A DNA stretch of 64,000 nucleotides from Bacteroidales bacterium (GCA_017962845.1 JAGCUN010000012.1:8175-72174); one strand, 5' to 3'. Shown: positions 33,708-61,827, numbered from the stretch's first letter. Program-made: numbers and translations. Notes: generated by a model from the sequence alone, not told the origin.

Positions 33708-33720
33708 ATAACTTATTGAT

Positions 33721-38352: not shown

Positions 38353-38373
38353 AGAAGACTTCAAAAGTCTTCT
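38353..38373. terminator. Bidirectional hairpin terminator next to the tRNA-Asp 3' end
   Basis: Stem AGAAGACT/AGTCTTCT flanked by an A-run on the left and a T-run on the right. Confidence 0.6.
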
Positions 38374-38388
38374 TTTTTTGTTTCAGGG

Positions 38389-38463
38389 CGGGCCGGACGA
38401 GGCTCGAACTCGCGACCCCATGCGTGACAGGCATGTATTCTAACCAAACTGAACTACCGGCCC
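38389..38463 (-). tRNA. tRNA-Asp (anticodon GTC)
   Basis: The reverse complement GGGCCGGTAGTTCAGTTTGGTTAGAATACATGCCTGTCACGCATGGGGTCGCGAGTTCGAGCCTCGTCCGGCCCG folds as a 75-nt cloverleaf: 7-bp acceptor stem, anticodon loop CTGTCAC, GTTCGAGCC T-loop. CCA is not fully encoded. Confidence 0.9.
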
Positions 38464-38484
38464 TGTTGTCTCATTTCGAGGATG

Positions 38485-38492
38485 CAAAAATA
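38485..38492 (-). promoter_or_regulatory. -7 promoter box TATTTTTG (minus strand) for tRNA-Asp
   Basis: Exact TAnnTTTG, about 22 nt upstream of the tRNA 5' end. Confidence 0.5.
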
Positions 38493-38598
38493 CAGCTTTT
38501 TTGTAAGTTAGCAAGCGTTTTTTCAAAAAAAATCAATATTTTATATTTTATTAAAAATCAATTATTTATAATAAAAATAGTTGATGAAATGATGAAAT

Positions 38599-39753: not shown

Positions 39754-39756
39754 GGA

Positions 39757-40866: not shown

Positions 40867-40868
40867 GG

Positions 40869-41582: not shown

Positions 41583-41685
41583 GCATTAGCCTATTTGATG
41601 TAATCAAACAACGAAGTTTTTTGCTTTTTCGTGTGTGGGGAGGAAATTTTTGGTGTGGGTAGGTTATGGCAGCATTTTAAAGGAT

Positions 41686-43686: not shown

Positions 43687-43725
43687 AATTTAGTGTGTTT
43701 TAGATGATTAAGTTCGATTAGAATA

Positions 43726-45006: not shown

Positions 45007-45054
45007 TATTCTGTTAAAAATAAGAGGGCAAAGTTACACATAATTTTTGAATAA

Positions 45055-46317
45055 CTATCGCACCTCCAACAAGTCGTTCACATCGCTGAGGTAATTTTTG
45101 CTGACGAATTCGCGGCGAGAGCTCCAGCGGCTCTCTTTGTTGCTCTGGATGGCGAACTGAACGGTGCCGCCCCCATCTGCCGAGTTGATCTTGTCGATGG
45201 CCTGAAACAGCTGCTGTCGTTTTTCTCGGTGCTGCACATCATCGAAGAAGTTCTGCTGCACGGCGTCGTCGCCCACGATGCCCGACACGATAACACCGGC
45301 ACGTTTGTACTGATAACCAGGTCGGTAGATATGGTCCAGCATTTTGCGGGCATACACAATCAGTTCGGAGGTATCGGCGGTGGCCACCAGCGTTTTCACA
45401 GTAGCAAATTGTTTATATTGAGGCAGTTCTGTCTTAAATCGGTCGGTGGCGATGAAAATGGAGATGATGTTGGCCACGGTGGACTGCTTGCGAAGTTTCT
45501 GAGCGCAGGACGTGGTGAAATGGACGATAGAGGCCAGCAGTTCGCTTTTTTCGGTCACCACCGTACCGAACGAGCGGCTGGTGCAGATGCTCTTTTTGGT
45601 CTCTATCTCAGCCGATTCCACGCAGGGAATGCCTTGAAGTTCCTGACAGGTGCGGAGTCCCGTAATGCCGAAGTGGTGCCGCACCCACGACGAACTCATC
45701 TGCGAAAAGTCCCAAGCCGTATGGATGGCGGCGGCCTCCAGCTTCTTACGGAACTGCCGCCCGATTCCCCACACCTCGTTCACGGGCAGCATCTGTAAGG
45801 CTTTACGGCGCTTGTCGTCGGTGTCCATCAAACAGACCCCTTTGTAGCCGGCGAAGTGTTTCGCGAAATGGCCGGCCGCCTTGGCTAACGTCTTTGTGGG
45901 GGCGATGCCGATGCTCACCGGTATGCCGGTCCAGCGGCTGATGACCCGCCGCAACTCGCGCATCTTCTGCAGCGCCACCTCCGGCGCATCTCCCTCCAAG
46001 TTGATGAAAGCCTCATCGATAGAGTAAATCTCCACCTCGAAAAAGCGGTCGGTGAGGATGCGCATCACCCGTGCCGACATGCCCGCATACAACGAGTAGT
46101 TGGAAGAGAAGATCGTGACATTGTGGCGGTTGATGATGTCGCGCACCTTGAAGTAAGGGGCACCGCGCTTCAGCCCGATGGCCTTGGCCTCGTTGGAGAG
46201 CGCCACGATGCAGCCGTCGTTGTTGCTGAGCACACAGACGGGACGGTTGCGCAGGTCGGGACGGAACACCCGCTCGGCGCTGACAAAGAAGTTGTTGCAA
46301 TCCACGAGCGCGAACAT
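45055..46317 (-). CDS. umuC: Y-family DNA polymerase V catalytic subunit
   Basis: MFALVDCNNFFVSAERVFRPDL N-terminus and SIDEAF motif. Confidence 0.85.
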   Translation of the reverse strand: MFALVDCNNFFVSAERVFRPDLRNRPVCVLSNNDGCIVALSNEAKAIGLKRGAPYFKVRDIINRHNVTIFSSNYSLYAGMSARVMRILTDRFFEVEIYSIDEAFINLEGDAPEVALQKMRELRRVISRWTGIPVSIGIAPTKTLAKAAGHFAKHFAGYKGVCLMDTDDKRRKALQMLPVNEVWGIGRQFRKKLEAAAIHTAWDFSQMSSSWVRHHFGITGLRTCQELQGIPCVESAEIETKKSICTSRSFGTVVTEKSELLASIVHFTTSCAQKLRKQSTVANIISIFIATDRFKTELPQYKQFATVKTLVATADTSELIVYARKMLDHIYRPGYQYKRAGVIVSGIVGDDAVQQNFFDDVQHREKRQQLFQAIDKINSADGGGTVQFAIQSNKESRWSSRREFVSKNYLSDVNDLLEVR

Positions 46318-46323
46318 GGCGGT

Positions 46324-46770
46324 TTATTTCAAACGGCATTTGATGGTGTAACTCACAATGCCCCACACGATGAAATCGTTGTCGGGGGTGACCTTGATGG
46401 GAGGGTACTGGTCGTTGGCGGGCTGGAGCCAAATCACGCCCCGCTCTTTTTCGTCTAAGTTAATGAATTTCAGCGTAAATTCGCCGTCGATGAAGCAGAC
46501 AGCCATACTCCCGTTCTGGGGTGCCAACGAGCGGTCGATGACCAGCAGGTCGCCCTCTTCCACGCCGGCATCCACCATCGAGTTGCCTACCACGCGGGCG
46601 TAAAAAGTAGCCGCCGGATGTTGCACCAGCACCTTGTTGAGGTCGAGACTTTGCGAAATATCGTCGCCAGAGGGCACGGGGAAACCCGCCTTCACGCCGC
46701 CATCCACAAAAAACTGCTCCATCGCAGCATCCGAGTTCGCACTGAAAATATCTAAAGTTTCTTTTGACAT
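46324..46770 (-). CDS. umuD: S24 LexA/UmuD-like autopeptidase (Pol V accessory subunit)
   Basis: VVGNSMVDAGVEEGDLLVIDRS carries the Ser nucleophile, with a downstream Lys. Lies 6 nt upstream of umuC. Confidence 0.85.
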   Translation of the reverse strand: MSKETLDIFSANSDAAMEQFFVDGGVKAGFPVPSGDDISQSLDLNKVLVQHPAATFYARVVGNSMVDAGVEEGDLLVIDRSLAPQNGSMAVCFIDGEFTLKFINLDEKERGVIWLQPANDQYPPIKVTPDNDFIVWGIVSYTIKCRLK

Positions 46771-46918
46771 ATTAATGCTGATCTCAGTTCTCTGCTTTTG
46801 GTTTTATGTTCTTCTAATTTAATGTTTTACTGCCAATATTCTTTTAGGATAAAAGTCCCAAATTGGCTTGGCAAAGGTAATTAAAAATTTCTATTCTCGC
46901 CTCTCACTTTTCAATTTT

Positions 46919-49372
46919 CTATTTCTCTGGCTGCCCCATCCCCATGCCGGCGCCCTGGCTGGCTCTGCTCTCCAACTCCATCTTTCCGAAACGGAACGTG
47001 ATGCCGGCGCTGATGGTGCGACTGACATATTTGGAGTTTGAAAAACTCTGGTAGTACGGATTCCTGTTCTCGTTCTTGTCGGCGTTCCAGTTGAAAATGT
47101 CGTTCACATTCAGATGTACTGAAATCTTGCGGTCGAGGAAGTCGGCACGCAAACCACAGTTGATGCCATAGCGCGGCTTTGTGACAAAGAACAGGCTGAC
47201 ACTCTTGGAGTTATAGTATGCCGAGGCGTGAACCTCCAACACCTTCCATAACTTCGCCCAGAAATTGAGGCGGAAGCTGTAGCCAAGATTGTCCACCTTG
47301 GTCGGCTCAGCACCATTTCGGAAATTGAACTCCGATTTGTTGTAATAGACATTCCCATAAAAGCGAATGATCATAAACTCCTTCAGCCGGTAGGTCACGT
47401 TCAACTCCCCTCCTGTGTTCATCGACTTGCCCACATTCAGCGGATAAGAGAAGGTCACAATACGCCCGAAAACGTCGCTGTAGGCCACATCGCTCAACGT
47501 ACTGATTTCATTGTTGGAATGTTTGTAGTAAGCACTGATGCCCACCGAGCCGAATCTCTGGAAATACTTGGTCCAGCCCGCCTCCACCGAATGGGTGAAG
47601 GTCTGCTTCAGGTCGGGGTTGCCCATACTGTAAGCGTCTTCCGTATAGCCGATGAAGGTGGTGAGTTCGTCGGAACTTGGATTCTGCACCCGCCGTGTGT
47701 AACTCAAGTTGAAGTTGTGCATCGACTTGGTGCGATAACTTAAGTGCAGGGAGGGATACAGACTCCAATAGGTCTTTTTCACATTGTCGGCAGGTGAGTT
47801 GAGAATGCGGTAATCGTAGCAGTCATATTCGCTTCGGAGCCCCCCCTTCAGAGTGAAATTGCCGAACTTGTGCTGGAGGGTGGTATAAGCAGAGAAACTA
47901 TAATCACGATCTACGCCATCTTGCAACCTCAATGAATCAATCTGATAGGTAGCGAGGGTGCCTGCCAATAGCGTGTCTTCTCGGTCAAAAAAAGGCCAAT
48001 AGGAATATGAACCACTGACACCTACCGAAAGCTCGCCATTTTTATGGTACGGATAGGTGTAATCCACACTGCCGTAAGCGCTACCACCTTTGCTGACCCC
48101 TTCCATTTTCTTGTCACGGTTCAGGTAGGACTGCGTGTCAAACTCTCGGATGAAAAAGCTCCTGCTTTTGTAATAATGCATACTGCCACCAAGGTCGGCA
48201 CTGATTTTGTGTCCCTCTTTTGGGAATAAATGTTCGTAATAAATCCCACCATATCCGCCGCCGCTCACACTCCGGCGTCCATCTTCAGTTTCGTAGAAGT
48301 ACACATCGGGATTATACAGATACTCTGAGCGCAGAGTATAACTTTGGCCCGATGATTTGCCCCACGACGGGTATCCGCCTGCCCAGAAGCTGATGCTGTT
48401 CAAGGAGTCGAACTGATAATCGCCGTTGAAGTACAATCCTCCCCACAACGAATGGCTGCGTTGCAAGCTGGATGCACATGCCACGGAGGAGGTGTCCATC
48501 TGCTCATTGAAACGGGTGGCCATCTGAATCGTGTTCGTCTTATAATACGAATAGTGGGTGGTGATGTAGAAATTGAGCGACAGCTTATCATTGCTCCAAA
48601 CGTATGATAGCCACGGACTCACATCGGGCATTGAGGAGCCGTAAAGTCCGAAGCTGACGAAGCTGTTTTTCTTGATTTTGGAGGTGGTGATGATATTGAT
48701 GATGCCGCCGGTTCCTTTGGCGCTGTAGCGTGCCGACGGGTTGGTGATGACCTCAATCCGCTCCAGCGCGTTGGCGGGCAGCTGCTGGATGAAGGTTTTC
48801 AGGCCCTCTGCATTGAGGCGCGACGGCTTGTCGTTGATCCATATCTCCACGGAAGACACGCCCCGGAGGGTGATGTTGCCTTCCACATCCACCTCCACGC
48901 CCGGCGCGTTCTGGAGCGCATCGGAGGCGGTGCCGGTCTGCACCGACGGGTCTTCCGACACATTATAGAGCGTTTTCTCCCCATCCACCATATACACGGG
49001 CTTGGAAGCTACAACCGAAATCCCTTCAAGGACATCACTCGTCCTTTTCAAACCCATGACACCGAGATCTATGGTGGTTTTTTCCGCCGGCACCGTAACG
49101 GAAATGTCCAGCGTTTCGTAGCCTACCAGCGAGGCCCGCAACAGGTAACTGCCAGACCGTACACCAGAGATGGTGAAACTGCCATCCGCCTCGGTGAAGG
49201 CCGCCCCCTCCTCATGCATGTTGGTGTCCGAAGTCACAAGCCCCACGCTGACATAAAACAGCTTGTCCCTGTTTAAACTGTCCACAAATGTTCCTTTGAC
49301 CGTGGACTGCGCCATTAACGCACTATAAGTCAGTGTAAAAGTTAAAATAAAGATAAAACGCAATCGTGCCAT
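46919..49372 (-). CDS. TonB-dependent-receptor-like outer membrane beta-barrel protein with carboxypeptidase-regulatory-like N-domain
   Basis: Signal peptide, CarboxypepD_reg-like beta-sandwich, plug-like region (NITLRGVSSVEIWINDKP), a long barrel and a terminal aromatic motif. Confidence 0.8.
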   Translation of the reverse strand: MARLRFIFILTFTLTYSALMAQSTVKGTFVDSLNRDKLFYVSVGLVTSDTNMHEEGAAFTEADGSFTISGVRSGSYLLRASLVGYETLDISVTVPAEKTTIDLGVMGLKRTSDVLEGISVVASKPVYMVDGEKTLYNVSEDPSVQTGTASDALQNAPGVEVDVEGNITLRGVSSVEIWINDKPSRLNAEGLKTFIQQLPANALERIEVITNPSARYSAKGTGGIINIITTSKIKKNSFVSFGLYGSSMPDVSPWLSYVWSNDKLSLNFYITTHYSYYKTNTIQMATRFNEQMDTSSVACASSLQRSHSLWGGLYFNGDYQFDSLNSISFWAGGYPSWGKSSGQSYTLRSEYLYNPDVYFYETEDGRRSVSGGGYGGIYYEHLFPKEGHKISADLGGSMHYYKSRSFFIREFDTQSYLNRDKKMEGVSKGGSAYGSVDYTYPYHKNGELSVGVSGSYSYWPFFDREDTLLAGTLATYQIDSLRLQDGVDRDYSFSAYTTLQHKFGNFTLKGGLRSEYDCYDYRILNSPADNVKKTYWSLYPSLHLSYRTKSMHNFNLSYTRRVQNPSSDELTTFIGYTEDAYSMGNPDLKQTFTHSVEAGWTKYFQRFGSVGISAYYKHSNNEISTLSDVAYSDVFGRIVTFSYPLNVGKSMNTGGELNVTYRLKEFMIIRFYGNVYYNKSEFNFRNGAEPTKVDNLGYSFRLNFWAKLWKVLEVHASAYYNSKSVSLFFVTKPRYGINCGLRADFLDRKISVHLNVNDIFNWNADKNENRNPYYQSFSNSKYVSRTISAGITFRFGKMELESRASQGAGMGMGQPEK

Positions 49373-49474
49373 AATGTAATGGGATTTTAAGAAAGTACTA
49401 AAGAGATAACGAAAGTTTTTACAGAATATTTTCTATGAAATGCATAAAATATTCAGCGAAATGAAATTTTATAG

Positions 49475-49582
49475 CCACTTTGCGGACTTATCGTCGAGCG
49501 CTGCCTTTCCGAACTCAAACGGCAGGGACAGATTCCCCACACCGGCAGCAAGAAGAGCGGCGGGTACAGCAGGTTGGTATAG
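49475..49582 (+). pseudogene. 3' remnant of a wHTH-encoding gene, homologous to the C-terminus of the 55764-56831 regulator
   Basis: Translation PLCGLIVERCLSELKRQGQIPHTGSKKSGGYSRLV* aligns with STVERCLAELKKRGAIQYTGSKKSGGYSRV*. DNA identity is clear over ACCGGCAGCAA.AAGAGCGGCGGGTACAGCAGG. An in-frame TAG lies immediately upstream. Confidence 0.6.
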
Positions 49583-49640
49583 AAAACATACGGTAGTGTT
49601 ATCATAAAACTGGGGGTATTTGTATGAAGTCGATGTGCCT

Positions 49641-52600
49641 TTATTGCTTCACGAACCGCTTGATGGCTGTTTTGTTTCTGCAACGTATTTTCACAAAGTA
49701 CATCCCTTGGGCAAAGTTGGCGACGGGAATTTGAATGTGTCTGCCGGAGGTTTGCATAGAGCGTAAGAGTCTGCCATTCACATCATATATTTCAGCTTCC
49801 GTCATGTCAGAAGATTCCTCTTGGAGTCGGATGTTGATGATGTCGTTGGTGGGATTCGGATAGAGAATGATGTCCGGCTCGTCGTTTATGTTCGCAACCC
49901 CTGTGTGAACAAGTGAGGTGTCAATCACAAGATTGTCAAAAAGAAAGTGGTGTTCCCCTTCACTTTCTGTTGTGAATTTGAATGCTATGTAATGCCCATT
50001 CCCTGTATAGGAGCTGAGAAATACGGTATCTTCCACCCAGATTTCATCATACGAATCCCACTCGTTCAAATGGAGAGTTCGAATGGGGACAAAGGTGCTT
50101 TCGTTTTCGGGATCCTCCATTACCCCGACAGAGAAGAACGACGATAGCGGACCTGATGGTTCGTACCAATACCTTATGATTAAGCTGTTTATCGGAATGT
50201 CAGTGCTAAAAGGTGGGAGAATAGCCATAGAGTACTGGGCACCTTCCGCCCCTAATGCAAAGTAATTGGGCGGACTTGGCAGTTGATTAAGAATATAGCT
50301 TGAGTTTCCTGTAAAGATCATCGGGTACACCTCGAAACCATTGGAATAAGAGAAACGGGTCCAGCACCATGGGTAGAGCTCTGATCCGTACGTGTCAAAA
50401 TACTCGGTATAAGGTAGATTGACAATTTCAGCACAACCTGTATGTAATGACAGAGGTGAAGTCCAGACGCTGTAGTCGTTGTTCCCACAAACGGTGCGCA
50501 CATAAATACTGTACATAGTATTGCCGTTCAGATTGGTGAAAGTGTATGACGTGTCCTGGATCACGAAACTTTCGGCATCCGTCCAGCTGCCACCCGCTTC
50601 CATGATGGCCACTTCCCATGTGTGGTCATCAGGAGTGCAGGGGGTGAAATGTATGCCGATTTCATGTGCACCTATTGTATCCGTGGTAACACTCAGAGGT
50701 CTTCCGCAAGAGACCCCGACAATGGCGATGTCATCCACGGCGCTGGGGGGGTTGTCGTTGTACCAAGTGTTTCTTCCCCACAAAAAATAGAGTCTTTGCA
50801 GTCCTTGGTGATGCTGATCAATGGTATAAGTGTGTCGATTCCAATTGAGATCTCGGGTGATAGTGCCTAACAGTTCTGCTCCTTCTGGGGTGTCTTCCCA
50901 GTTGGGGGTGGCCGGTGGTCCGATGAACACTTTGAAGGTGTTATCGGTACCATTGTAGAGTTGTCCTCCGCATTGATGGTAAAGCGAGAGTTCATATTCG
51001 TTGAAAGAGGGATCGAAATAGATGTCGCGATAAGTCCAGTACCATGTAATCCACTCATCTTCAGGGATATAGTTATATTGGTCGGAACCAACATAGAGAC
51101 TGTGGTTGCTGGATTGATACACAGCGGTTCCAATCTGCCAGTGGGGCGTGGCCGTAGTAGTGGAGGTCAGCCATTCCGCATTTTCATCAGCATCTTCAAA
51201 ATCGCAGGAATAAGGAATCCGTCCAAGCATGCTGTAGGTTCGGAACGACTGCTCTACCGACCAGATGCTTTCGTCATTCGCCGAACAGTGAGTCTTGACC
51301 TTCCAAATATAGTTCGTTGATGGCTGTAAACCAGAAAGTTGGTAGCTGTTTGTGTTGGCCGTTATCTCCGTAAAGAGACTGTCCTCCTCGGCTTTATAGG
51401 CAAGGGTGTAGGTCACGGACGAATTAGCGGGCAACCAAGTGAGTTCGGCAGAGTGGTCCAAAACACTACTGGCTGACAACTCAACAGGTGCAGGACAGGT
51501 AGAGCCTATGATGACAATATTGTCAATGGCCGCTGGCGGATTTGTCCCCCACGAGCCATCATTTGCCCATAGGAAATACAATCGTTGCATTCCCGAATAA
51601 CCTGCCGGATTCATCAATTGAATGGTAGTCCACTCCCCCGTCTCATTGAGCTTGTCACTTAATGCAATGGCTCCTTCTGGAATATCATATCCAGTAGGAA
51701 TGGTGGGAGGACCAACAAATAGTTGCAGATAGTCGTGCTTTGTTGAATTGTAGGTTTCTCCTATTCCTTTGAAATCGAAGGAAATGGTATAATTGGCGAT
51801 AGTATCAGGGATGAAGATGTCACGGCAGGCCCATGTGGACGCTCCTGTTGTTAAAGTGTAGGCATTGGTGATTCCGCCATCATTGGAAATAAAAAGAGTT
51901 GTTTCACCGATGTTGGAGGTGTCACTGCCGATGACCCACTGGTTGGTGCGGTCATTCTCAAAAAACAGCCAGTTGGCAACCTCCGTGGAATCTTCAAAAT
52001 CGCAGGTGTAGGGCAGGTGTGCCACTGGATGAAGGGTATGGAACGAACTTTCACTCCACAAACTGTATTCATCATCAGAGCAGTTACTACGAACTTTCCA
52101 ATCATAAGACGTTTCATATTGGAAATCATTGATTACTATATAATTGTAGGATGATGAAAATTCTATGTAGTTTGAATCGGAGGATTCTTTATAGAGGATG
52201 GTATAAGAATTTGCACCATCGACGGCATCCCAAGAGAGAACGAGGGTGGTATCCATCACATTGGCTGTCAGGTGCGATGGCTTGGCACAGCTGGCAGGTG
52301 TTACGGAGAGGTTGTCGATAGCCGCCGGGGGTTGGGTTCCGCCGCTACCATCATTGCGCCAGAGGAAATAGATTCTCTGTACCCCTGAAAAGGAGGCATC
52401 GATAGAAAATTCATAATGGGTCCATGTTGAGACCATGCATAAATTTTCAACAAAAAGAGTAGCTCCTTCAGGTGGGGTAATGATGGGATTGCTATTACCA
52501 TAAGAAATATAGGGAACGTCGGCAGGCGGGCCGACATAAATGTTCAAATAATCATATACTCTGTCTCCTATTTTTTCCCCCATCCCTTTGAAATCAAATG

Positions 52601-52925
52601 CGACACGGCACTCCTGAAAAGTGCTGTCAATGAAAATGTCACGGTAGGCCCAACTGGTGGAGGCAAAACTGATGTCGTAACTATTGGTAGTGTTCAGGTA
52701 AAAACCCACATATAGCGAATAGTTGCCTTCGCTATGGGTGGAAGTCCCTAACATCCATTGATTGTAAAAATCGGGTGAGACAACATTCCAGTTGTTCCGC
52801 TCTTCCTCGTCTTCAAAACCACAATAATAGGGAACGGTGGCTGGAACGGGATCATCTTGTGCATATATTTTCCCGATACCAGTTGCCATGAATAAGAAGG
52901 ATGAAAAGAGGATGATTTTTTTCAT
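49641..52925 (-). CDS. Large T9SS cargo protein: three and a half ~270-aa repeat modules (choice-of-anchor-J-like), three alternating with FN3-like domains, plus a CTD
   Basis: Modules start at PYYCGFEDEEE, PYTCDFEDSTE, PYSCDFEDADE and PYTEYFDTYG. Each of the first three ends QR(I/L)YFLW..PPAAIDN. CTD LYPNPTNDIINIRL... Confidence 0.8.
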   Translation of the reverse strand: MKKIILFSSFLFMATGIGKIYAQDDPVPATVPYYCGFEDEEERNNWNVVSPDFYNQWMLGTSTHSEGNYSLYVGFYLNTTNSYDISFASTSWAYRDIFIDSTFQECRVAFDFKGMGEKIGDRVYDYLNIYVGPPADVPYISYGNSNPIITPPEGATLFVENLCMVSTWTHYEFSIDASFSGVQRIYFLWRNDGSGGTQPPAAIDNLSVTPASCAKPSHLTANVMDTTLVLSWDAVDGANSYTILYKESSDSNYIEFSSSYNYIVINDFQYETSYDWKVRSNCSDDEYSLWSESSFHTLHPVAHLPYTCDFEDSTEVANWLFFENDRTNQWVIGSDTSNIGETTLFISNDGGITNAYTLTTGASTWACRDIFIPDTIANYTISFDFKGIGETYNSTKHDYLQLFVGPPTIPTGYDIPEGAIALSDKLNETGEWTTIQLMNPAGYSGMQRLYFLWANDGSWGTNPPAAIDNIVIIGSTCPAPVELSASSVLDHSAELTWLPANSSVTYTLAYKAEEDSLFTEITANTNSYQLSGLQPSTNYIWKVKTHCSANDESIWSVEQSFRTYSMLGRIPYSCDFEDADENAEWLTSTTTATPHWQIGTAVYQSSNHSLYVGSDQYNYIPEDEWITWYWTYRDIYFDPSFNEYELSLYHQCGGQLYNGTDNTFKVFIGPPATPNWEDTPEGAELLGTITRDLNWNRHTYTIDQHHQGLQRLYFLWGRNTWYNDNPPSAVDDIAIVGVSCGRPLSVTTDTIGAHEIGIHFTPCTPDDHTWEVAIMEAGGSWTDAESFVIQDTSYTFTNLNGNTMYSIYVRTVCGNNDYSVWTSPLSLHTGCAEIVNLPYTEYFDTYGSELYPWCWTRFSYSNGFEVYPMIFTGNSSYILNQLPSPPNYFALGAEGAQYSMAILPPFSTDIPINSLIIRYWYEPSGPLSSFFSVGVMEDPENESTFVPIRTLHLNEWDSYDEIWVEDTVFLSSYTGNGHYIAFKFTTESEGEHHFLFDNLVIDTSLVHTGVANINDEPDIILYPNPTNDIINIRLQEESSDMTEAEIYDVNGRLLRSMQTSGRHIQIPVANFAQGMYFVKIRCRNKTAIKRFVKQ

Positions 52926-52965
52926 TGTCTTGAATTTTTAGGGATACAATGTTGAAAAATTTGAG

Positions 52966-53199
52966 CAAAATTACAATTTCTCGGGCAAAATTTATCCCCT
53001 TACATCCAAAATGTGAACCCTCACAGGAAAAAAAGTTGTAATGAGGGTTGAAATGAATGTTCTGCGGGGGTGTAATACACTAATAATCAATATATTACAG
53101 AATAATAATTTAAGCGGGTTTGTGAGGGGATAAATGTAGATTTGTGAAGGGATAAAACGGTGTTTTGTGAAAATGTTGTAAGGGATTTGAGTATCTTTG
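52966..53199. promoter_or_regulatory. Bidirectional regulatory module, copy 1
   Basis: Contains a minus-strand -7 box (52966-52973), TTTATCCCCTTACA (52991-53004), GTGAACCCTCACAG (53012-53025), direct repeats TTTGTGAGGGGATAAA (53119-53134) and TTTGTGAAGGGATAAA (53141-53156), and a plus-strand -7 box TATCTTTG (53192-53199). Confidence 0.6.
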
Positions 53200-53223
53200 C
53201 GGACGTATTTACATTTAAAAGTT

Positions 53224-53921
53224 ATGAAGTGCTTGAAGAGAATTGCCATCATTGTATTGAATGTTCTGGTCTGCGCCATTTTCTTTATTATTTTTCCACA
53301 AACTGCTGGCTGCGCCCATCGTCAGGCAGTCTTTTCAAGGAATTATTCTCCGGTGTCCTCTTGTTGGCTTCGCTGTATATCAATTACTATCTGTTCTATC
53401 CCAAAATTCATCCAAAAAAATCGGCGATATATTGGCTGGTGGTAGTGGTTACTACTATGACAATTGCCGTGGTGGATTTTGCCATGGCTTATTCGTTTAT
53501 TATTACGAGGAATGCTCAACTTGTTGAATTTCTCGGTCCCTTTAAGTTTTTCTCAAGAATTCTTTTCTTTGCTTTTGGCCGTAACCTTGCATTTAACTTT
53601 TTCACTTATCTGTTCAGAGAGCGTCAGCAGTTGCGACAGTCATTGGAGAAAGAGGTGCAGGTGGTTTACCGAGATGTCCGGAAAATTGATGTTACGGACA
53701 AGGAGAGCAATATCAAGCTATTGACCATTGACGACATATTTTACTGCGAACAGCAACGGAATTTCACCACGATTCACACTGTGCAAAATGAAAAATACAC
53801 GCGATTGGGCTCCATGAAGCATCTGGAACAGCTGTTCGGCGAGGAGGAGTTCGTCCGCATCACGACCACCCTGCTGGTGCCGTTCCAGTACATCCAATCG
53901 TGCAAAAACAACACGGTGTGA
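53224..53921 (+). pseudogene. Membrane LytTR-domain regulator, paralog 1, frameshifted near the T5 run at 53291-53295 and lacking the wHTH tail
   Basis: MKCLKRIAIIVLNVLVCAIFFIIF (frame of 53224) aligns with the N-terminus of paralog 2. The rest (..WLRPSSGSLFKELFSG...LytTR) continues in the frame of ORF 53160..53921. Adding one T would restore a single ORF. Confidence 0.6.
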
Positions 53922-54038
53922 ACGATTAATTGTTAAGCAGATAATCACATGTGTCAGTTTGTTGATTGTTCAACATATTGATAATCAATATTTTACATTT
54001 TTATTACAGAAAATTTTGCAAAAAATAATATTATTTTG

Positions 54039-54117
54039 TTTGAAAAGTGTATTTTTGCAGACGGAAATTCTATTGAAAAGTGTAGTTTTTGGCCACGAAA
54101 ATTATTTGAAAAGTGTA
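54039..54117 (+). promoter_or_regulatory. Three TTGAAAAGTGTA direct repeats at exact 33-bp spacing upstream of the ATPase gene
   Basis: Repeats start at 54040, 54073 and 54106. The last ends 7 nt before the ATG at 54125. Confidence 0.5.
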
Positions 54118-54124
54118 AAATGCC

Positions 54125-55489
54125 ATGCTGTACAGGAAAATCACATCGTATATTGAAGACTATTTGAGGTCTGATACGGACAAGATTCTGATACTGGAAG
54201 GTGCCCGCCAGATTGGCAAGTCGTTCAGCATTCGTGAGGCGGGTGCAAGGTTGTACCCAAACTTTGTGGAGATTAACTTCGTAGAGGACGATGAGAATGA
54301 TCAGCTGTTCAAAAATATTCACAAAAAAGAGGATTTCTACCTTACTCTCAGCATGGTGGCTGGAGAAAAGTTGTCGAACCGCAATGATACGCTGGTGTTC
54401 CTTGACGAGATACAGCATTATCCACAGTACCTCACCATGCTGAAGTTTTTGCGCGAGGATGGCCGTTACCGCTATATTGCCAGCGGCAGTTTGCTGGGCA
54501 TAGCGTTGCAAGACACCACCTCTATCCCTGTGGGCAGCATCACCATCAAGCAGATGTACCAGCTTGATTTTGAGGAATTTATCATTGCCAATGGTTTCGG
54601 AACAGATGCCATTGCCCTGCTGCGGCATGCCTACGAGAGCTGTCAAAGTCTGACAGAGGAACATCACAACCGTGTGCTGGATTTGTTCCGTCGCTACCTG
54701 TTGGTGGGCGGAATGCCTGATGCGGTCAACACTTACCTTGACACGCACAACATTGTAAAGGTGCGCGAGGTACAGGAGGGTATCCGCAGCCTCTATGCCG
54801 CCGATGCCTCCAAATACGAGAAAGAGCATAGCAAGAAACTACTCATTCGCCGCATTTACGAAATGATTCCCTCGCAAATGGAGAACAAAAAGAAACGCAT
54901 TGTAGTTCAAGAGATACGGGGGAAGGAAGGGGATCGTTTTGCACAATACCAGCAGGAGTTCGAATATCTCGTTTCATCGGGCATCGCTTTGGCTGTCCAT
55001 GCCATTTCCAATCCGCATTTTCCATTGAGTGAGTCGTTGCATAAGAATCTGCTCAAACTTTATCTGAACGACGTGGGCCTGCTAACAGGTGTTCTCTTTC
55101 AGAATAATATCCGTTCCGTTCTCGCTGATGTGCGGAGCATCAATCTGGGAAGTGTTTACGAAAGCGTGGTCGCGCAGGAACTCCGTGCCCATGGACACAA
55201 ACTTTTCTATTACGATAACCGCAAGCAAGGCGAGGTTGATTACCTGATTGATAACCATAACGCCATGAGTGCCTATCCGATAGAAGTTAAGTCAGGAAAG
55301 GACTACACCGTACACAGTGCTCTCAACAATCTACTGAAGAACCCTGACTATAACATCCATGCGGCTGTGGTTTTTTCCAATGAACGAAGAATGTACAGGG
55401 AGGGGAAGGTCACCTATATGCCGGTTTATTTCGTGATGTTCATAGGAGCCGCAACCGCTGATGCGGAAAGATCGGAATATCTTTTCTGA
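54125..55489 (+). CDS. AAA-type ATPase with DUF4143-like C-terminal domain
   Basis: Walker A-like LEGARQIGKS, Walker B LVFLDEIQ, and a C-terminal PD-(D/E)xK-like segment GEVDYLID..YPIEVKSG, typical of the AAA_14/DUF4143 family. Confidence 0.8.
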   Translation: MLYRKITSYIEDYLRSDTDKILILEGARQIGKSFSIREAGARLYPNFVEINFVEDDENDQLFKNIHKKEDFYLTLSMVAGEKLSNRNDTLVFLDEIQHYPQYLTMLKFLREDGRYRYIASGSLLGIALQDTTSIPVGSITIKQMYQLDFEEFIIANGFGTDAIALLRHAYESCQSLTEEHHNRVLDLFRRYLLVGGMPDAVNTYLDTHNIVKVREVQEGIRSLYAADASKYEKEHSKKLLIRRIYEMIPSQMENKKKRIVVQEIRGKEGDRFAQYQQEFEYLVSSGIALAVHAISNPHFPLSESLHKNLLKLYLNDVGLLTGVLFQNNIRSVLADVRSINLGSVYESVVAQELRAHGHKLFYYDNRKQGEVDYLIDNHNAMSAYPIEVKSGKDYTVHSALNNLLKNPDYNIHAAVVFSNERRMYREGKVTYMPVYFVMFIGAATADAERSEYLF

Positions 55490-55506
55490 CCTCAAAGACT
55501 CAGGAA

Positions 55507-55739
55507 TTTTACCATTTGCAGCGCAAAATTTTATCCCTCACAGCCAAAATGTGAACCCTCACAGGAAAAATTTTTTGTGAAGGCTGAAGGGAATATTTTG
55601 CGTTTGGGATGGTAATGTGTTAATAATCAATGTATTATAAAATAATATTTAAAAGGGGTTTGTAAGAGGATAAATGTGGGTTTGTGAAGGAATAAAACGG
55701 TGTTTTGTGAAAATGTTGTAAGGGAATTGAGTATCTTTG
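55507..55739. promoter_or_regulatory. Bidirectional regulatory module, copy 2 (minus-strand -7 box degenerate)
   Basis: TTTATCCCTCACA (55530-), GTGAACCCTCACAG, direct repeats TTTGTAAGAGGATAAA (55659-55674) and TTTGTGAAGGAATAAA (55681-55696), and TATCTTTG (55732-55739). Confidence 0.6.
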
Positions 55740-55763
55740 CGTCCTCATTCAAATATTGCTTCA

Positions 55764-56831
55764 ATGAAAAAACACCTGAAAACGATTGTCATCATTTTGC
55801 TGAATATCCTGCTCTGCGCCATAATGCTATGGTTTTATGTTAGGAATTCATACCTGCGCCCTTTTTCTGGCAGTTTTCTCAAAGAAGTCATTTCTGGACT
55901 TCTATTATTGGGTTCTTTATATTTCAATCACTTCCTGCTTTGTCCGTTGATTTACAAAAAAAATTCTTATTTTATCTACTGGTTACTTGTCACTCTTATG
56001 GCGATAGTAATTGGTGGAGTAGATCTTGCTATGGCATATTCTTATATAAAATCTCATAATGTAGCACTTATTGAATGTTTTGGTCACTTCAAGTTCTTCT
56101 CTAAAGTTCTTTTCTTTACCATTGGCCGTAACCTTGCATTGAACTTTTTCCCATATCTGTTCAGAGAGCGTCAGCAGTTGCGACAGTCATTGGAGAAAGA
56201 GGTGCAGGTGGTTTACCGAGATGTCCGGAAAATTGATGTCACCGACAAGGACAGCAATGTTCAGCTGGTCTCCATTGACGACATTTTCTACTGCGAACAG
56301 CAACGGAATTTCACCACAATTCACACTGTGCAAAATGAAAAATACACACGATTGGGTTCCATGAAACATCTGGAGCAACTGCTCGGCGAGGAGGAGTTCG
56401 TCCGCATCACGACCACCCTGCTGGTGCCGTTCCAGTACATCCAATCGTGCAAAGACAACCTCGTGTTGATGAGGCAAATGCCGTGGCAAAAGGTCCCCAC
56501 TACCTTCCCGTTGGAAGCCCGTACGCAGACAGAGGTGACCGAAAAGATTGCTAAAGTCCTTTCGCAGAGGGAGGTTGTTTTGGACGAAAATAAAATCCAG
56601 GAGGCTCCCACTTCCTCCACCGCCAGGCGGAAACCGGCATTGCCCGCTGAAGAGAAGGTCAGGGAGGTACTTTCCTTCATAGAAGCCCATTCCAACTGCA
56701 ACACGGCGGACATCATGGCCGAAACGGACTTTTCGTTGAGCACCGTGGAGCGCTGTCTCGCTGAGCTCAAGAAACGAGGGGCAATCCAGTACACCGGCAG
56801 CAAAAAGAGCGGCGGGTACAGCAGGGTGTGA
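55764..56831 (+). CDS. Receiver-less membrane LytTR-domain regulator with extra C-terminal winged-helix domain, paralog 2
   Basis: About 4 TM helices, then a LytTR-like domain (VSIDDIFYCEQQRNFTTIHT..RLGSMKHLEQLL..FVRITTTLLV), a linker and a wHTH (VLSFIEAHSNCNTADIMAETDFSLSTVERCLAELKKRGAI). Confidence 0.75.
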   Translation: MKKHLKTIVIILLNILLCAIMLWFYVRNSYLRPFSGSFLKEVISGLLLLGSLYFNHFLLCPLIYKKNSYFIYWLLVTLMAIVIGGVDLAMAYSYIKSHNVALIECFGHFKFFSKVLFFTIGRNLALNFFPYLFRERQQLRQSLEKEVQVVYRDVRKIDVTDKDSNVQLVSIDDIFYCEQQRNFTTIHTVQNEKYTRLGSMKHLEQLLGEEEFVRITTTLLVPFQYIQSCKDNLVLMRQMPWQKVPTTFPLEARTQTEVTEKIAKVLSQREVVLDENKIQEAPTSSTARRKPALPAEEKVREVLSFIEAHSNCNTADIMAETDFSLSTVERCLAELKKRGAIQYTGSKKSGGYSRV

Positions 56832-56836
56832 ATAAT

Positions 56837-58078
56837 TTAATTTTCAAGAAAATAGTCGCATACATTCATTACAAACATTCCATTGTTCAGTCTATGTGCA
56901 GGAATGGTGTCATTGGTTAAAATCACTTTCTTGAAAGAGTCGTCAATTAGCTTTAAAGAGCGTTCCTCTTGCTGTTGTTTTTCGGCATCAGGAAGGGAAA
57001 AGGCACTTTGAACATAGAGTCGGTCGTTGTCCTTATTGCAGACAAAATCCACCTCAAATGTGTTTCGTACGGTTTTTCCGTCCTTGTCTTTTGTGTATTG
57101 TTCAATTACCCCGACATCCACACTGTATCCATAGTGAATCAAGTGGTTGAATATGATGTTCTCCATTACATGAGTGGGTTCTACCTGTCTGAAATCAAGG
57201 GCTGAATTCCTCAGTCCAATGTCAGAAAAATAGTACTTGCAGGGAGTGTCGATGTATTTCTTTCCTTTAATGTCGTAGCGGATAGTTTTTTTTAAGAGAA
57301 AAGAATCTTCAAAGTAATCAATGTATTGTTTGATAGTCCATGAATTTATAGAAACATTTTTCTCGCTTTTGAAAGTGTTGGACAGTTTGGTAGGATTCGT
57401 CAAAGATCCGATATTGGATGCCAGTATGTTGAAAAGGTCAGACAGTTCCGCGTCATTCTTCACCTTGTTTCTTCCTATGATGTCTGTCAAATAAGTCTCT
57501 TTAACTAATGCGTGCAACATTTCCCGCTTGATGGGAGCATTGGTTTCGCTCACAACCAAAGGAATGCCGCCATAATACATATATTCTTTCCAAACGGAGG
57601 TTATTTCTCCTCCTTTTTCCAAATATATCTCCTTAAAAGTAAGTGGGTTGACATTGACTTGCACTCCGCGTCCCCTAAATTCAGTCACGATGTCGGAGGA
57701 TAAAAATTTCGCATTGCTGCCTGTGACATACACGTCGAGATTGTCAATGTGCAGAAAACCGTTCAGTACATCCACAAACCTGTCAAGCATTTGCACCTCA
57801 TCAATGAAAACGTAATGCATCTCCTTGTCGTTTGCAGAGGCTTCTTTAATGAATCGATACATTTTTTCCGCATCACGGTATTCGCTGAAGGCAAAATCGT
57901 CCAAGGGGATTTCGATGATGTGATGGGCGGTCACACCGCTTTCAAGGAGGTGGCGTTTGAAAAGGTTGAACAGCAAATAGGACTTCCCAACACGTCGAAG
58001 TCCGGTCACTACTTTGATTAAGTGGTTGTGCTTGTATGCCTCCAGTTTCTGAATGTAATGTTCTCTCTTGAATTCCAT
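56837..58078 (-). CDS. AAA-type ATPase with DUF4143-like C-terminal domain (second, divergent copy)
   Basis: Walker A GLRRVGKSYLL, Walker B YVFIDEVQ, C-terminal FEVDFVC..LYVQSA motif. ATG at 58078. Confidence 0.8.
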   Translation of the reverse strand: MEFKREHYIQKLEAYKHNHLIKVVTGLRRVGKSYLLFNLFKRHLLESGVTAHHIIEIPLDDFAFSEYRDAEKMYRFIKEASANDKEMHYVFIDEVQMLDRFVDVLNGFLHIDNLDVYVTGSNAKFLSSDIVTEFRGRGVQVNVNPLTFKEIYLEKGGEITSVWKEYMYYGGIPLVVSETNAPIKREMLHALVKETYLTDIIGRNKVKNDAELSDLFNILASNIGSLTNPTKLSNTFKSEKNVSINSWTIKQYIDYFEDSFLLKKTIRYDIKGKKYIDTPCKYYFSDIGLRNSALDFRQVEPTHVMENIIFNHLIHYGYSVDVGVIEQYTKDKDGKTVRNTFEVDFVCNKDNDRLYVQSAFSLPDAEKQQQEERSLKLIDDSFKKVILTNDTIPAHRLNNGMFVMNVCDYFLEN

Positions 58079-58251
58079 TTGGAAAATATTTTTGTGTATA
58101 TACACAATTTTAGTTTGCAAAAATACAAAAAAAAAGAGAGAGAAGATGTCTTTGGATTTTTTTTATAAAAAAAAGAAGCGGAACAGCAACTGTCCCGCTT
58201 CCATCGCATACATTTCGCCAATTACTTGCATTCAAGCATGGCTTTCAACCG

Positions 58252-59676
58252 TTATTCTTTTACGAATTTGGCTTCCATGGTGCCGTTCTCCGAATCAATC
58301 TTCAGAAGATAGAGTCCAGCTGCAAAATGGCTTATGTCTAAAGTGAAGTCGCTGTCGTTCACTCTCTTTTTATGAATAAGTTGTCCGTTGGCATTGTAAA
58401 CGGAGATTGTGTTGATGCGGCTGTCGCCCTCGATGCGAATTTGGTCAGAGGCCGGATTCGGGTACATTCTCACAGTGGCGATGAGTTCGGTGCCGACACC
58501 GCTGCCGTTGGGACCGAAAACGGTGTAATAGCCCCAAGTGAAGCATCCCGGATCATTGGCTTCTTGCACCATCACAGAATAGGTGCCGATAGGCAGGTTG
58601 GAAATGGTGGCGGTCTCAGCGCCGGTGTTCCATGTGTAGAGGTAGGGCGGATTGCCGGAGGTGACGGTGGCCGTGGCACTTCCCGTGCCGGAATAGATGG
58701 AATAGGAATCGGAGTTCGTACCAGTAACGGTGACGGCGATGTTGCAGCCGGCAGGATTGACGGTGAAGTTGCCGACCTTCTGGCAGGCATTGGCATCGGT
58801 AACCGTGACATAGTAGCTGGTGGGTATCAGTCCGGTGATGGTCTGGGTGGTTTCAAGGTTGCTCCAGAGGTATTGGTAAGGTGCGGTGCCGCCGTTGGGG
58901 GTGGCGGTAGCGGTGCCGTCCATGGCACCGACGGAGGTTTCGTGCGTGCCGCTCATGGTCACATTGAAGCCTTCACAACTGGGCATGTTGAAGACGATGC
59001 CGTCGATGTAGAACTCGCTGCCAGCCACCGGTGCGGGAAGTCCCAGCTGCGAGGGGGTGGGCATCCCCGGAGCGATGGCGGAGTAGTCGGGGATGGAGCC
59101 GACGCTGGAGCAGATGAAAATGCTCATCTTGTCGGGCTGCTGGGTGGTGGAATATACAAAGGGAATGTTCACATGCGTCCACTCCTCCACGGTGCTGTTC
59201 ACCTCGAAGTAGCACTCGCCCACGAGGTCGTCTTCGTCGGTAGCGGCATTGTACTTGGTGAGTTCCACTTGGAAGCAGCACGCATCATCGCCCATCGGTT
59301 TCGCTTTGTACAGGAAATCCACTGATACGGGGCGTTTGTTATAGGCCACACCGCCATCTCCGACGGAACCCAGCTGGATGAAGCCGCCGACAGGATTGGG
59401 GAAGGGTAGGGGCAGAAACAGCAGCCTGAAGTTCTCGCATTCCGGACAGCTTCCTGTCACCAATTTCAAAGAGGCGGAGCCCTCTCCGGGAGAGGCGGTC
59501 TCCTTGAATACAGTCTGTGCACCGCCGCCGTCCATCGATAGGTCGTTGGAAGAGGTCCATCCTACGGGCTCAATGCCATTCCAGTTCTCAAAATTCAAGT
59601 TGGTGGGATCGTTCTGGGCGTGTGATGCCATTGCAAAAAATGCAAGGAACGCCATGAATAGGCTAAATTTTTTCAT
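58252..59676 (-). CDS. T9SS cargo protein with two SprB-type repeats and a CTD
   Basis: Signal peptide. Repeats GTATATPNGGTAPYQYLWSN...VTVTDANAC and SATATVTSGNPPYLYTWNTG. CTD MYPNPASDQIRIEG... Confidence 0.75.
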   Translation of the reverse strand: MKKFSLFMAFLAFFAMASHAQNDPTNLNFENWNGIEPVGWTSSNDLSMDGGGAQTVFKETASPGEGSASLKLVTGSCPECENFRLLFLPLPFPNPVGGFIQLGSVGDGGVAYNKRPVSVDFLYKAKPMGDDACCFQVELTKYNAATDEDDLVGECYFEVNSTVEEWTHVNIPFVYSTTQQPDKMSIFICSSVGSIPDYSAIAPGMPTPSQLGLPAPVAGSEFYIDGIVFNMPSCEGFNVTMSGTHETSVGAMDGTATATPNGGTAPYQYLWSNLETTQTITGLIPTSYYVTVTDANACQKVGNFTVNPAGCNIAVTVTGTNSDSYSIYSGTGSATATVTSGNPPYLYTWNTGAETATISNLPIGTYSVMVQEANDPGCFTWGYYTVFGPNGSGVGTELIATVRMYPNPASDQIRIEGDSRINTISVYNANGQLIHKKRVNDSDFTLDISHFAAGLYLLKIDSENGTMEAKFVKE

Positions 59677-59767
59677 TACTCTTTTTTTGATTGATATTAA
59701 TGTGATGTTTGCTCAATTCACGTTACAAACGTTACAAATGCAGCGACTGGCTGACAAATTTCAGCGG

Positions 59768-59956
59768 CAAAATTACCATTTGCAGAGCAATATTTAATCC
59801 CTCATAGCAGGAATGTGAACCCTCACAGCAAAAATGTGACCACCTGCTTCAATGAAGCTGTTATGTGGATTTGTAATAAATTGTGAATCAAATTTTTATA
59901 AAAACAAAATGGATAGGGCTTGTGAGGGAATAAATGAAATTATGTGAAGGGATAGA
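59768..59956. promoter_or_regulatory. Regulatory module, copy 3 (no LytTR gene follows)
   Basis: Minus-strand -7 box TAATTTTG (59768-59775), TTTAATCCCTCATA, GTGAACCCTCACAG, and direct repeats CTTGTGAGGGAATAAA (59919-59934) and TATGTGAAGGGATAGA (59941-59956). Confidence 0.6.
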
Positions 59957-60003
59957 TGAAAATCAGGAAGGTGATTTCTCCCGTTTTCAGTTTTCAATTC
60001 TCA

Positions 60004-60031
60004 CTTTTAACTTTTAACTTTTAACTTTTAA
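60004..60031. repeat. Tandem heptamer (CTTTTAA)x4
   Basis: Four perfect units just 3' of the FAH-family gene's stop codon. Confidence 0.9.
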
Positions 60032-60039
60032 CTCCCCCC

Positions 60040-61320: not shown

Positions 61321-61827
61321 TTAAAGAGTGTCGGAAACTACAGAGTCGTTCTCGGGTAACTGCGGAGTGGAGGGTACTATCTCCACTTCACCCAATACAT
61401 ATTTAACTTTATCATCCTGATCCCTATCGTATACCCACTCTGTCTCAATAATTCCTTCGTCATCATAATCAAAAATTCCGCCTTGTCTAGGAATGCTGTC
61501 GGAGGGTTCAGAGGGTTCATTGTTATCAAGAATGGTTTCAGAAGAGGTGGGAGTGGGTGCTTCTGGCGAAGTGGGCGTAGAGGAGTGGCATCCGCTCATC
61601 AGCATTCCGCCAAGCACGATGCCGGTGGTGATGACCGCTTTGCCCAATTGACTTTTCTTTTGGAGCTCGTTTTCCAGATATCGCACTTCCGCCTCGCAGC
61701 GCGGACAGGTGCCGCGGCAGTCGCCATCGTAGGTGCATTCCCTCATTTCTAAAGGGATGTCGTTCTTGTGGGCGATTTCCTGCCGAATTTCTTTCAGGAT
61801 TTTACAGGTTGCTTTTCCTCTTTTCAT
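61321..61827 (-). CDS. Cys-rich single-pass membrane protein adjacent to the radical SAM gene
   Basis: N-terminal CTYDGDCRGTCPRCE (C-x5-C-x3-C-x2-C), TM/lipobox-like segment LMSGCHS, then a Pro/Ser/Thr-rich and acidic tail. A 3-nt gap separates it from the rSAM gene. Confidence 0.55.
   Translation of the reverse strand: MKRGKATCKILKEIRQEIAHKNDIPLEMRECTYDGDCRGTCPRCEAEVRYLENELQKKSQLGKAVITTGIVLGGMLMSGCHSSTPTSPEAPTPTSSETILDNNEPSEPSDSIPRQGGIFDYDDEGIIETEWVYDRDQDDKVKYVLGEVEIVPSTPQLPENDSVVSDTL

Follow-up and report, generated by a model that had tools for sequence, protein, structure and literature searches.

Divergent promoter modules with phased direct repeats adjoining genes for membrane-anchored LytTR regulators in a Bacteroidales bacterium: a candidate circuit for exported proteins

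LytTR proteins bind direct repeats of 9-11 bp placed 10-13 bp apart, by or over the -35 element, and often regulate their own expression (PMC6193735, PMC11347149). LytTR regulators with multiple transmembrane segments were described in silico in the "LRS-like" (LytTR regulatory system-like) operons of Bacteroides thetaiotaomicron and B. ovatus (Zou et al., 2018; PMC6193735, Table 3), the promoters of which contain direct repeats of 11 bp, separated by 11-bp spacers and located 11 bp upstream of TGTA-19 bp-TATCTTTG (PMC6193735). Here we report on three copies of a putative divergent promoter module located between positions 52966 and 59956 of a 64,000-nucleotide stretch of DNA from a Bacteroidales bacterium (GCA_017962845.1, JAGCUN010000012.1:8175-72174; contig C39:8175-72174 of a 2.49-Mb assembly in 51 contigs), referred to below as the window. 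It is proposed, with a probability of about 0.8, that these copies are divergent promoters with phased-repeat operators, that the operators are read by adjoining regulators composed of four transmembrane helices, a LytTR domain and a winged helix-turn-helix (wHTH) domain, and that the circuit switches genes encoding exported proteins.

The Bacteroides LRS-like systems, the closest precedent, share with this locus several transmembrane segments ahead of the DNA-binding domain, a 22-bp repeat period, a Bacteroidetes-type promoter and presumed autoregulation; knowledge of both comes from in silico analysis alone. Whereas in Bacteroides the regulator gene follows that of an NfeD/DUF2154 membrane protein in an operon of two genes, the genes described here are monocistronic with no such partner nearby, and the products carry an extra C-terminal winged helix. 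In addition, the repeat sequences here and in Bacteroides are unrelated (TCCGGTATTCA against TGTGAGGGWWCACAT), and the operator of this locus serves a second, divergent promoter as well as up to ~16 others per genome. Regarding the traits by which Zou et al. recognize an LRS, the two-gene operon with a separate transmembrane inhibitor is absent, the transmembrane domain being fused to the regulator; on the other hand, repeats upstream of the regulator's own promoter, which would provide for autoregulation, are conserved in the 11 aligned orthologs and at >20 loci. The arrangement typical of LytTR-type operators (at least two imperfect direct repeats of 9-11 bp or more, 20-23 bp start to start, by or over the -35/-33 element) is likewise found, with 21-22 bp at all sites.

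More distant parallels are HdrR and BrsR of Streptococcus mutans, which have paired 9-bp repeats 12 bp apart upstream of the -35 element, positive autoregulation and secreted products (PMC6193735). Their products are bacteriocins and the regulators are soluble with a separate membrane inhibitor, in contrast to the fused transmembrane domain found here, and their promoters (sigma-70 -35/-10) and target classes are different as well. CoxC of Afipia carboxidovorans (MHYT-LytTR) is a membrane-bound single-component regulator as well, with three repeats separated by 12-13-bp spacers over the -35 element (PMC11347149), but it contains a 7-transmembrane MHYT sensor that binds carbon monoxide via copper, represses one operon, lacks the wHTH domain and is alphaproteobacterial. 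The sites of AgrA (P2/P3) and ComE consist of two imperfect repeats ~21 bp apart abutting the promoter; P2/P3 is, as here, a divergent promoter pair with autoregulation, and the LytTR fold of AgrA resembles the one modelled here (TM-score 0.79). However, AgrA and ComE act as phosphorylated response regulators in two-component systems for quorum sensing, while neither a receiver domain nor a kinase is found in the present case.

The locus does not represent a new principle, as autoregulation by LytTR proteins through direct repeats is established and an analogous arrangement in Bacteroides was predicted in 2018. What sets it apart from the Bacteroides systems is the added wHTH domain, the divergent two-promoter module, the spread of the cassette to many genes for exported proteins and the absence of an NfeD/DUF2154 partner. 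In a literature search on LytTR together with the type IX secretion system (T9SS), Bacteroidales or Porphyromonas, no publication was found that connects T9SS cargo with regulators of the LytTR type. To our knowledge, little has been established in Bacteroidota about how T9SS cargo and other surface proteins are regulated, PorXY/SigP apart, and we know of nothing for uncultured rumen Bacteroidales.

The three copies align mutually over ~190-230 bp, and every motif of the shared ordered set that a reading made from the sequence alone (hereafter, the sequence-only reading) had proposed was recovered in its place. The right half contains a pair of repeats of the form TGTGA(G/A)GG(G/A)ATA(A/G)A, exactly 22 bp start to start in each copy. 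The left half contains TTTATCCCC(T)TACA (52991-53004, and at the corresponding place in the other copies), which is indeed the reverse complement of the right repeat, and a second element, TGTGAACCCTCACA; the general form of the left elements is TTTATCCC(C)T(C/T)ACA plus the unchanging AATGTGAACCCTCACAG. On the minus strand, the left half in turn consists of two or three direct repeats aimed at the gene to the left, with the layout CTGTGAGGGTTCACATT, ~6 nt, TGTGARGGGATAAAT, 16 nt, TA(A/T)TTTTG, 20-110 nt, ATG. The unit that precedes each promoter is, towards the gene, TGTGAGGGTTCACATT, ~6 nt, TGTGARGGGATAAAT, with 21-22 bp start to start, and a third weaker copy (GGTGGTCACATTT, TAGGTTCACATTT, CGTCATATTTT) is often located one period farther out. 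There are two or three repeat units of 15-16 bp per promoter, and the core that varies least is GGGTTCACATT (consensus of 15 sites). Counting matches to the 14-mer with at most 2 mismatches, 16 occur in the window against 2.7 +/- 1.7 in shuffled sequence, a ~six-fold excess.

From its sequence, the module is thus two operators placed back to back, each with one Bacteroidetes-type -7 box. The plus-strand box is TATCTTTG in copies 1 and 2; the minus-strand box is TAATTTTG in copies 1 and 3 and, in agreement with the sequence-only reading, decayed to TAAAATTC in copy 2, which has no minus-strand gene to drive (Table 1). Both promoters lack a canonical TTTG -33 element, which usually lies 19-21 nt from the -7 box. 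In the left promoter the proximal repeat occupies the usual -33 position, extending from ~-44 to -30 as counted from the start site that the -7 box implies, and on the regulator side the strongest repeat ends ~35 nt ahead of the box, with weaker phased copies in the gap. In module 1 the left operator has 21 bp start to start (51.2 bits with the covariance model R1, see below) and, across all regulator orthologs, the best conserved upstream block is the proximal right copy. An AT-rich core had been claimed for all the copies; the central TAATAATCAAT is exact in copies 1 and 2 but not in copy 3, and this element is kept only in full modules adjoining regulator genes. In the strain sampled by run X6 the A-run at 53028 is 1 nt shorter and the G-run at 53065 has an additional GGGG; in module 1, lengths vary only in such homopolymer spacers, the repeats being unaffected.

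Table 1. Positions in the window of the modules, the regulator genes and their targets.
Feature	Position	Strand	Basis and remarks
Further regulator gene, decayed 3' remnant (wHTH end)	49490-49576	+	72% identity to residues 327-355
Target gene 1, 1094-aa T9SS cargo (fn3 repeats, Por_Secre_tail C-terminal domain)	49641-52925	-	Pfam; Por_Secre_tail 58.5 bits
Predicted leftward -7 box TAATTTTG, module 1	52967-52974	-	16 nt beyond the proximal repeat, as in 42/60 genus sites
Module 1 left operator, towards cargo 1	52990-53025	-	Distal TGTGAGGGTTCACA 53012-53025; proximal TGTAAGGGGATAAAT 52990-53004
AT-rich central element TAATAATCAAT, in the weak palindrome ATAAT-N6-ATTAT	53082-53092	.	Footprint alignment, 11 regulator-linked modules
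Module 1 right operator	53121-53156	+	TGTGAGGGGATAAA 53121, TGTGAAGGGATAAA 53143, 22 bp; weaker phased copies 53166, 53178
Predicted rightward (regulator) -7 box TATCTTTG, module 1	53192-53199	+	Kept in 11/11 aligned orthologous promoters
LytTR paralog 1, pseudogene or truncated	53225-53921	+	72% identity over residues 21-235, one stop
Module 2 left half	55504-55563	-	Operator intact (55529-55542, 55550-55563); -7 box TAAAATTC (55504-55511) degenerate; R1 49.3 bits
Module 2 right operator and predicted -7 box TATCTTTG	55661-55739	+	55661-55674, 55683-55696 (22 bp apart); box 55732-55739
Intact regulator	55764-56831	+	Four N-terminal transmembrane helices, LytTR (~156-249), disordered linker, C-terminal winged helix (296-354)
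Target gene 2, 474-aa T9SS cargo (SprB repeats, Por_Secre_tail)	58252-59676	-	Pfam; Por_Secre_tail 66.9 bits
Module 3 predicted leftward promoter	59768-59844	-	Box TAATTTTG 59768-59775; proximal TATGAGGGATTAAA 59793-59806; distal TGTGAGGGTTCACA 59814-59827; third copy GGTGGTCACA 59835-59844
Module 3 right operator pair, orphaned	59921-59956	+	Starts 59921, 59943; neither -7 box nor gene after

A search of the whole genome using BLAST, nhmmer and a sequence-only covariance model (R1) revealed that the module is not restricted to the three copies in the window; three more modules and three half-modules were detected elsewhere in the genome. One full module (C26:1827-2053) lies between a lipoprotein gene and a regulator paralog of 59% identity, another (C51:57330-57537) faces a T9SS cargo gene of ~1560 aa without any regulator gene, and a diverged module (C43:~750-1015) is located ahead of a paralog of 38% identity; the half-modules, which consist of the left half only, precede genes on contigs C42, C18 and C26. 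Phased repeat pairs number 23 genome-wide compared to 1-10 in shuffled sequences, and 12/23 are within modules. The expected association with promoters was supported by the observation that 9/9 strong matches are intergenic and that all of them except copy 2 aim at a gene start 46-110 nt away. Furthermore, among 60 operator sites gathered from 12 species of the genus, a TAnnTTTG-like box is found beyond the operator in 50, at 16 nt in 42 of them, at 17 nt in 7 and at 15 nt in 1.

These results also bear on the alternative that the copies are a mobile or invertible non-coding element, either a miniature inverted-repeat transposable element with 14-bp terminal inverted repeats (TTTATCCCCTTACA...TGTGAAGGGATAAA) or an invertible promoter. 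The outer repeats are in fact inverted copies ~150 bp apart, the cassette is present at 9 genomic places with 70-90% identity, in some of them ahead of unrelated genes, and remnants of regulator genes record past rearrangements. Against this stand the exclusively intergenic location, the fixed distance to the gene start (copy 2 excepted), the position of the -7 boxes outside the inverted pair, the syntenic placement upstream of orthologous regulators in three genera and the half-modules that lack an inverted partner; besides, no strand-change joints indicative of inversion were detected in four DNA metagenomes, and the modules are not represented in RNA contigs. Such an element is therefore very improbable. 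Copy 3 and the C51 module have lost their regulator gene and still drive, or at least face, a cargo gene. In G004, a sister species, 97 nt of a LytTR/wHTH gene, from its wHTH region, persist after the module 3 ortholog (C24:3386-3482, locus L105), which suggests that the orphan module 3 once had its own regulator gene.

The sequence-only reading had placed a LytTR gene after copies 1 and 2, which is correct for copy 2, where the gene is intact, and only in part for copy 1. The product of the intact gene (55764-56831) matches Pfam LytTR (PF04397) with 39.1 bits against a cut-off of 22.6, over positions 4-66 of the 98 in the profile. A sequence search of the PDB with this protein produced no useful match. 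In an AlphaFold (AF2) model built with 33 homologs (predicted local distance difference test, pLDDT, 81.5), residues 156-249 are all-beta and superpose in Foldseek on 3d6w of B. cereus (TM-score 0.80) and on AgrA (4xqj, 0.79; 4g4k, 0.77), so that the LytTR fold is complete in the model. The C-terminus, a MarR-like winged helix, matches HTH_24 in Pfam and superposes on MarR/ArsR-type winged helices. The positive-inside rule applied to the four helices places the LytTR and wHTH domains in the cytoplasm, and the protein is predicted to be a membrane-anchored one-component factor with a second DNA-binding domain.

In paralog 1 (Pfam LytTR, 37.4 bits), the reading frame is shifted near the T5 run at 53291-53295 and ends inside or just after the LytTR domain, without the wHTH domain and the C-terminal third. 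The frameshift allele (53287-53300) is identical in four DNA metagenome runs from three studies, with no run-length variants seen, which indicates a fixed allele and not an assembly error. The decayed fragment at 49490-49576 belongs to repeat D6 and is 95% identical to 56791-56828. The regulator family comprises 435 homologs, all metagenomic and none named, and according to the records its genomes are metagenome-assembled genomes (MAGs) of uncultured Bacteroidales from the rumen of sheep, yak, buffalo, cattle and deer and from horse faeces. The wHTH recognition helix is almost invariant across the family, and the neighbours of the regulator genes are DUF4143 ATPases, a convergent lipoprotein gene and cargo genes.

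The connection between regulator and operator was evaluated across other MAGs. A match to R1 was detected ~200-240 bp upstream of the regulator gene, on the opposite strand, at ~21/29 loci, a count that includes the weak matches L069 and L075 and, solely through a plus-strand match near the gene, L070. This linkage reaches down to ~46% protein identity. No R1 operator was detected at L065, L067, L068, L071, L078 and three fragment loci; inspection disclosed diverged repeats at L065, L068, L071 and L078, L067 being the exception. The same adjacency of regulator and operator is found in two further genera (g25 and g38). When 11 regulator-linked modules are aligned, conservation is seen in the repeats, both -7 boxes and the central AT-rich element, while the spacers drift.

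In addition, the repeat variants within a module switch together. GACGG is present in every repeat of the L065 and L071 modules, GATGG in both halves of the L069 module, and in the group with 38-48% identity GAGGGAACATATT + CGTCATATT replaces GAGGGTTCACATT + TCACATT (in short form, TTCACATT + TCACATT to AACATATT + TCATATT). The C43 module has the repeat GCCGTGAAGGA twice (CGTGAAGGA), a variant that occurs nowhere else in this genome. Co-occurrence agrees with linkage: among 19 genomes of the genus the operator is present in 11/11 that have the regulator and in 3/8 that do not (Fisher p = 0.005), and among 101 genomes of the family 17 have both, 10 the regulator only, 1 the operator only and 73 neither (Fisher p = 1.7e-11), meaning that 17/18 operator-positive genomes carry the regulator. 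The regulator-only class is attributed to the fact that R1 is tuned to the operator variant of this genus. Based on adjacency, co-occurrence and concerted variation, we infer that the regulator binds the repeats physically. Of its two DNA-binding domains, LytTR is the likelier reader.

The C43 unit (C43:~750-2077) deserves separate mention as a third intact paralog, of 38% identity, with its own module and the two private repeats 21 bp apart; it looks like a one-promoter-pair circuit for a small lipoprotein gene.

Evidence of transcription was obtained from four rumen metatranscriptomes of one study (X26-X29), considering contigs with >=99% identity. Contig depth is a poor measure of expression; within this limit, the targets of three full modules are covered nearly end to end and are almost the sole well-covered genes in ~97 kb. 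Contigs cover cargo 1 (49613-52946) in 3-4 metatranscriptomes and end at 52940-52946, cargo 2 is covered from 58252 to 59751, with one contig ending at 59751, and the left target of the C26 module is covered from 570 to 1769, with ~7 unaligned bases beyond in all four runs. In the same ~97 kb, no RNA contigs were found over any module or any regulator gene, and the ATPase genes (one small piece apart) and nearly all other sequence were likewise uncovered. The 5' ends of the contigs are located 10-25 nt downstream of the predicted -7 boxes, which fits the predicted start sites and speaks against the modules as transcribed elements; a small RNA or transcribed element was rejected, as no RNA contig covers any module. 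Among the eight targets compared three are strongly covered and one, that of half-module H2, weakly, indicating that expression across the regulon is uneven in these samples. Altogether, expression supports promoter function and high in vivo activity of three full modules and is not proof of co-regulation. Beyond the operator of half-module H1, RNA covers the lipoprotein gene C42:20260-21168, which is not the gene aimed at. The only part of 30000-49500 with high RNA depth is the tRNA region at 38387-38456, presumably because of conserved tRNA sequence of other organisms.

Activator-dependent promoters typically have repeats in place of the -35 element. In the mechanism that we propose, the membrane-anchored regulators would bind the phased repeats cooperatively, in response to a signal presumably sensed by the transmembrane domain. 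On the left side the proximal repeat would replace the missing -33 element, the bound regulator would recruit RNA polymerase, and the gene for the exported protein (T9SS cargo, lipoprotein, Fib_succ_major or TonB_C protein) would be activated. On the right side the repeats lie one step farther upstream of the regulator's own -7 box and may mediate autoregulation, most likely as positive feedback. The operator-plus-promoter cassette would have been copied ahead of up to ~16 unrelated genes per genome. Provided that the regulator binds, activation with positive autoregulation is probable; it is favoured because the proximal repeat takes the -33 place and because most LytTR proteins activate and autoactivate (PMC6193735).

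Several observations weigh against this proposal. In the first place, operators without a detected regulator are present in G004 (11 sites), G008 (4) and G015 (2), and a true loss of the regulator in these genomes, which is possible, would be difficult to reconcile with it. In addition, the residues that discriminate between operator types amount to one column in LytTR and one in wHTH, which does not single out LytTR as the reader. The genomes with operators but no detected regulator could be accommodated if the repeats were operators of some other, unlinked factor and the LytTR genes conserved members of its regulon, and the distal site TGTGA-N4-TCACA is palindromic like the sites of dimeric HTH factors. 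Such a factor is nevertheless improbable: regulator and operator adjoin in three genera and co-occur beyond chance, the repeat variants follow the divergence of the adjoining regulator, and direct repeats with a 21-22-bp period are a LytTR signature (PMC6193735). Moreover, the exceptions are mostly incomplete MAGs with contigs broken at regulator-bearing repeats, which are often at contig ends. G004 and G008 are 80% and 76% complete, respectively, and G004 retains decayed regulator fragments by its module 3 ortholog, making loss through assembly a plausible reason for the missing regulators.

Other contrary observations are that expression is not shared by all operator-linked genes, the targets on C51, C42 (H1) and C26 (H3) having no RNA contigs in these samples, that no RNA contigs were found over the regulators in the four metatranscriptomes, and that the proximal repeat overlaps the -33 position. 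The overlap would allow the bound regulator to block RNA polymerase, expression following its release by the sensor domain. Repression of this kind is known for CoxC, the one characterized membrane-bound LytTR regulator, which represses from three repeats over the -35 element (PMC11347149), and high expression of three targets with no regulator RNA assembled would be in line with it. However, the target promoters lack the canonical TTTG element, as is typical of activator-dependent promoters, and the majority of LytTR regulators are activators and autoactivators (PMC6193735), so that repression appears possible but unlikely. The left half of copy 2, having lost the -7 box and kept the operator, is neutral between the two modes.

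Two other interpretations of the motifs were considered and discarded. A CRP/FNR-like palindrome (TGTGA-N4-TCACA) applies to the distal left site only and becomes non-palindromic (GAGGGAACATATT) in diverged lineages that keep the direct repeats. A promoter for an extracytoplasmic function (ECF) sigma factor, GGGTTCAC...N16...GGGATAAA, is unlikely given the TAnnTTTG box fixed 16 nt farther on and the third phased repeat.

With regard to the targets, the 60 genus sites precede 56 open reading frames (ORFs) that belong to 31 sequence families. A crude signal-peptide rule is met by 46/56, and by several more when a later start codon is used. Pfam assigned Por_Secre_tail to at least 12, Fib_succ_major to 10, giant fn3/Pur_ac_phosph_N architectures to 7 (read only to 6 kb, their C-termini being unseen) and TonB_C to 4; single targets include a C10 peptidase, a GH2 enzyme, an alpha-2-macroglobulin and an outer-membrane barrel, and some are lipoproteins. 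In this genome T9SS cargo accounts for 3/8 targets against ~4% of genes, the C51 target having its C-terminal domain (CTD) at C51:62081-62269; conversely, the circuit covers only 3 of the ~89 T9SS cargo genes, as counted by CTD-bearing ORFs. The proposed regulon comprises from a few to ~16 genes per genome. The proposal of a LytTR regulon that includes T9SS cargo was supported by linkage, co-occurrence and cargo enrichment but was too narrow, since most targets in the genus have no Por_Secre_tail and the regulon is not T9SS-specific; it is better described as one of exported and surface proteins.

Among the operator-linked genes, C42:19456-20076 shares with the unlinked window gene 61321-61827 a Cys-rich N-terminus (C-x5-C-x3-C-x2-C) and a single transmembrane segment. 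A TonB_C domain is encoded by the C42 gene and also by homologs of it that follow operators in four other species. An ECF sigma gene is located close to the C42 target (C42:21195-21740).

A more elaborate version of the proposal is a portable expression platform in which LytTR would occupy the repeats of both halves and the wHTH domain would bind the central palindrome or bridge the halves, forming a loop of ~200 bp at the membrane. This is a speculative possibility with rather low probability. If true, transcription of exported-protein genes would be coupled to the site of export, and duplication and recombination of the cassette would allow new genes for surface proteins and T9SS cargo to be swapped into a single sensory circuit.

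Independently of the looped version, the analysis provides a clonable regulator family and a probable operator with base-level geometry relative to the -7 element. Three genes of the proposed regulon yield some of this organism's most visible transcripts in rumen metatranscriptomes. The module may serve as a compact natural promoter cassette for Bacteroidales, probably inducible, and constitutes a test case for how a LytTR protein works when it is tethered to the membrane and carries another DNA-binding domain.

Concerning the surroundings of the modules, AAA_14/DUF4143 ATPase genes at 54125-55489 (+) and 56837-58120 (-) are inserted between the regulator and cargo units; they have no RNA contigs save one 146-nt piece at 56855-57000 in X27. 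Short joints in DNA contigs (54043-54118 / 58095-58134) suggest that the upstream regions of these genes share repeated sequence. Right after the orphan module 3 there is a (CTTTTAA)n-like simple repeat (60001-60034), the depth of which is in 3- to 16-fold excess in all DNA and RNA runs, implying that this motif is found throughout rumen data. Runs of a similar kind (TTTTCAAT/CTTTTAA) occur after the orphan C51 module and ahead of a regulator gene of genome G009 (L010).

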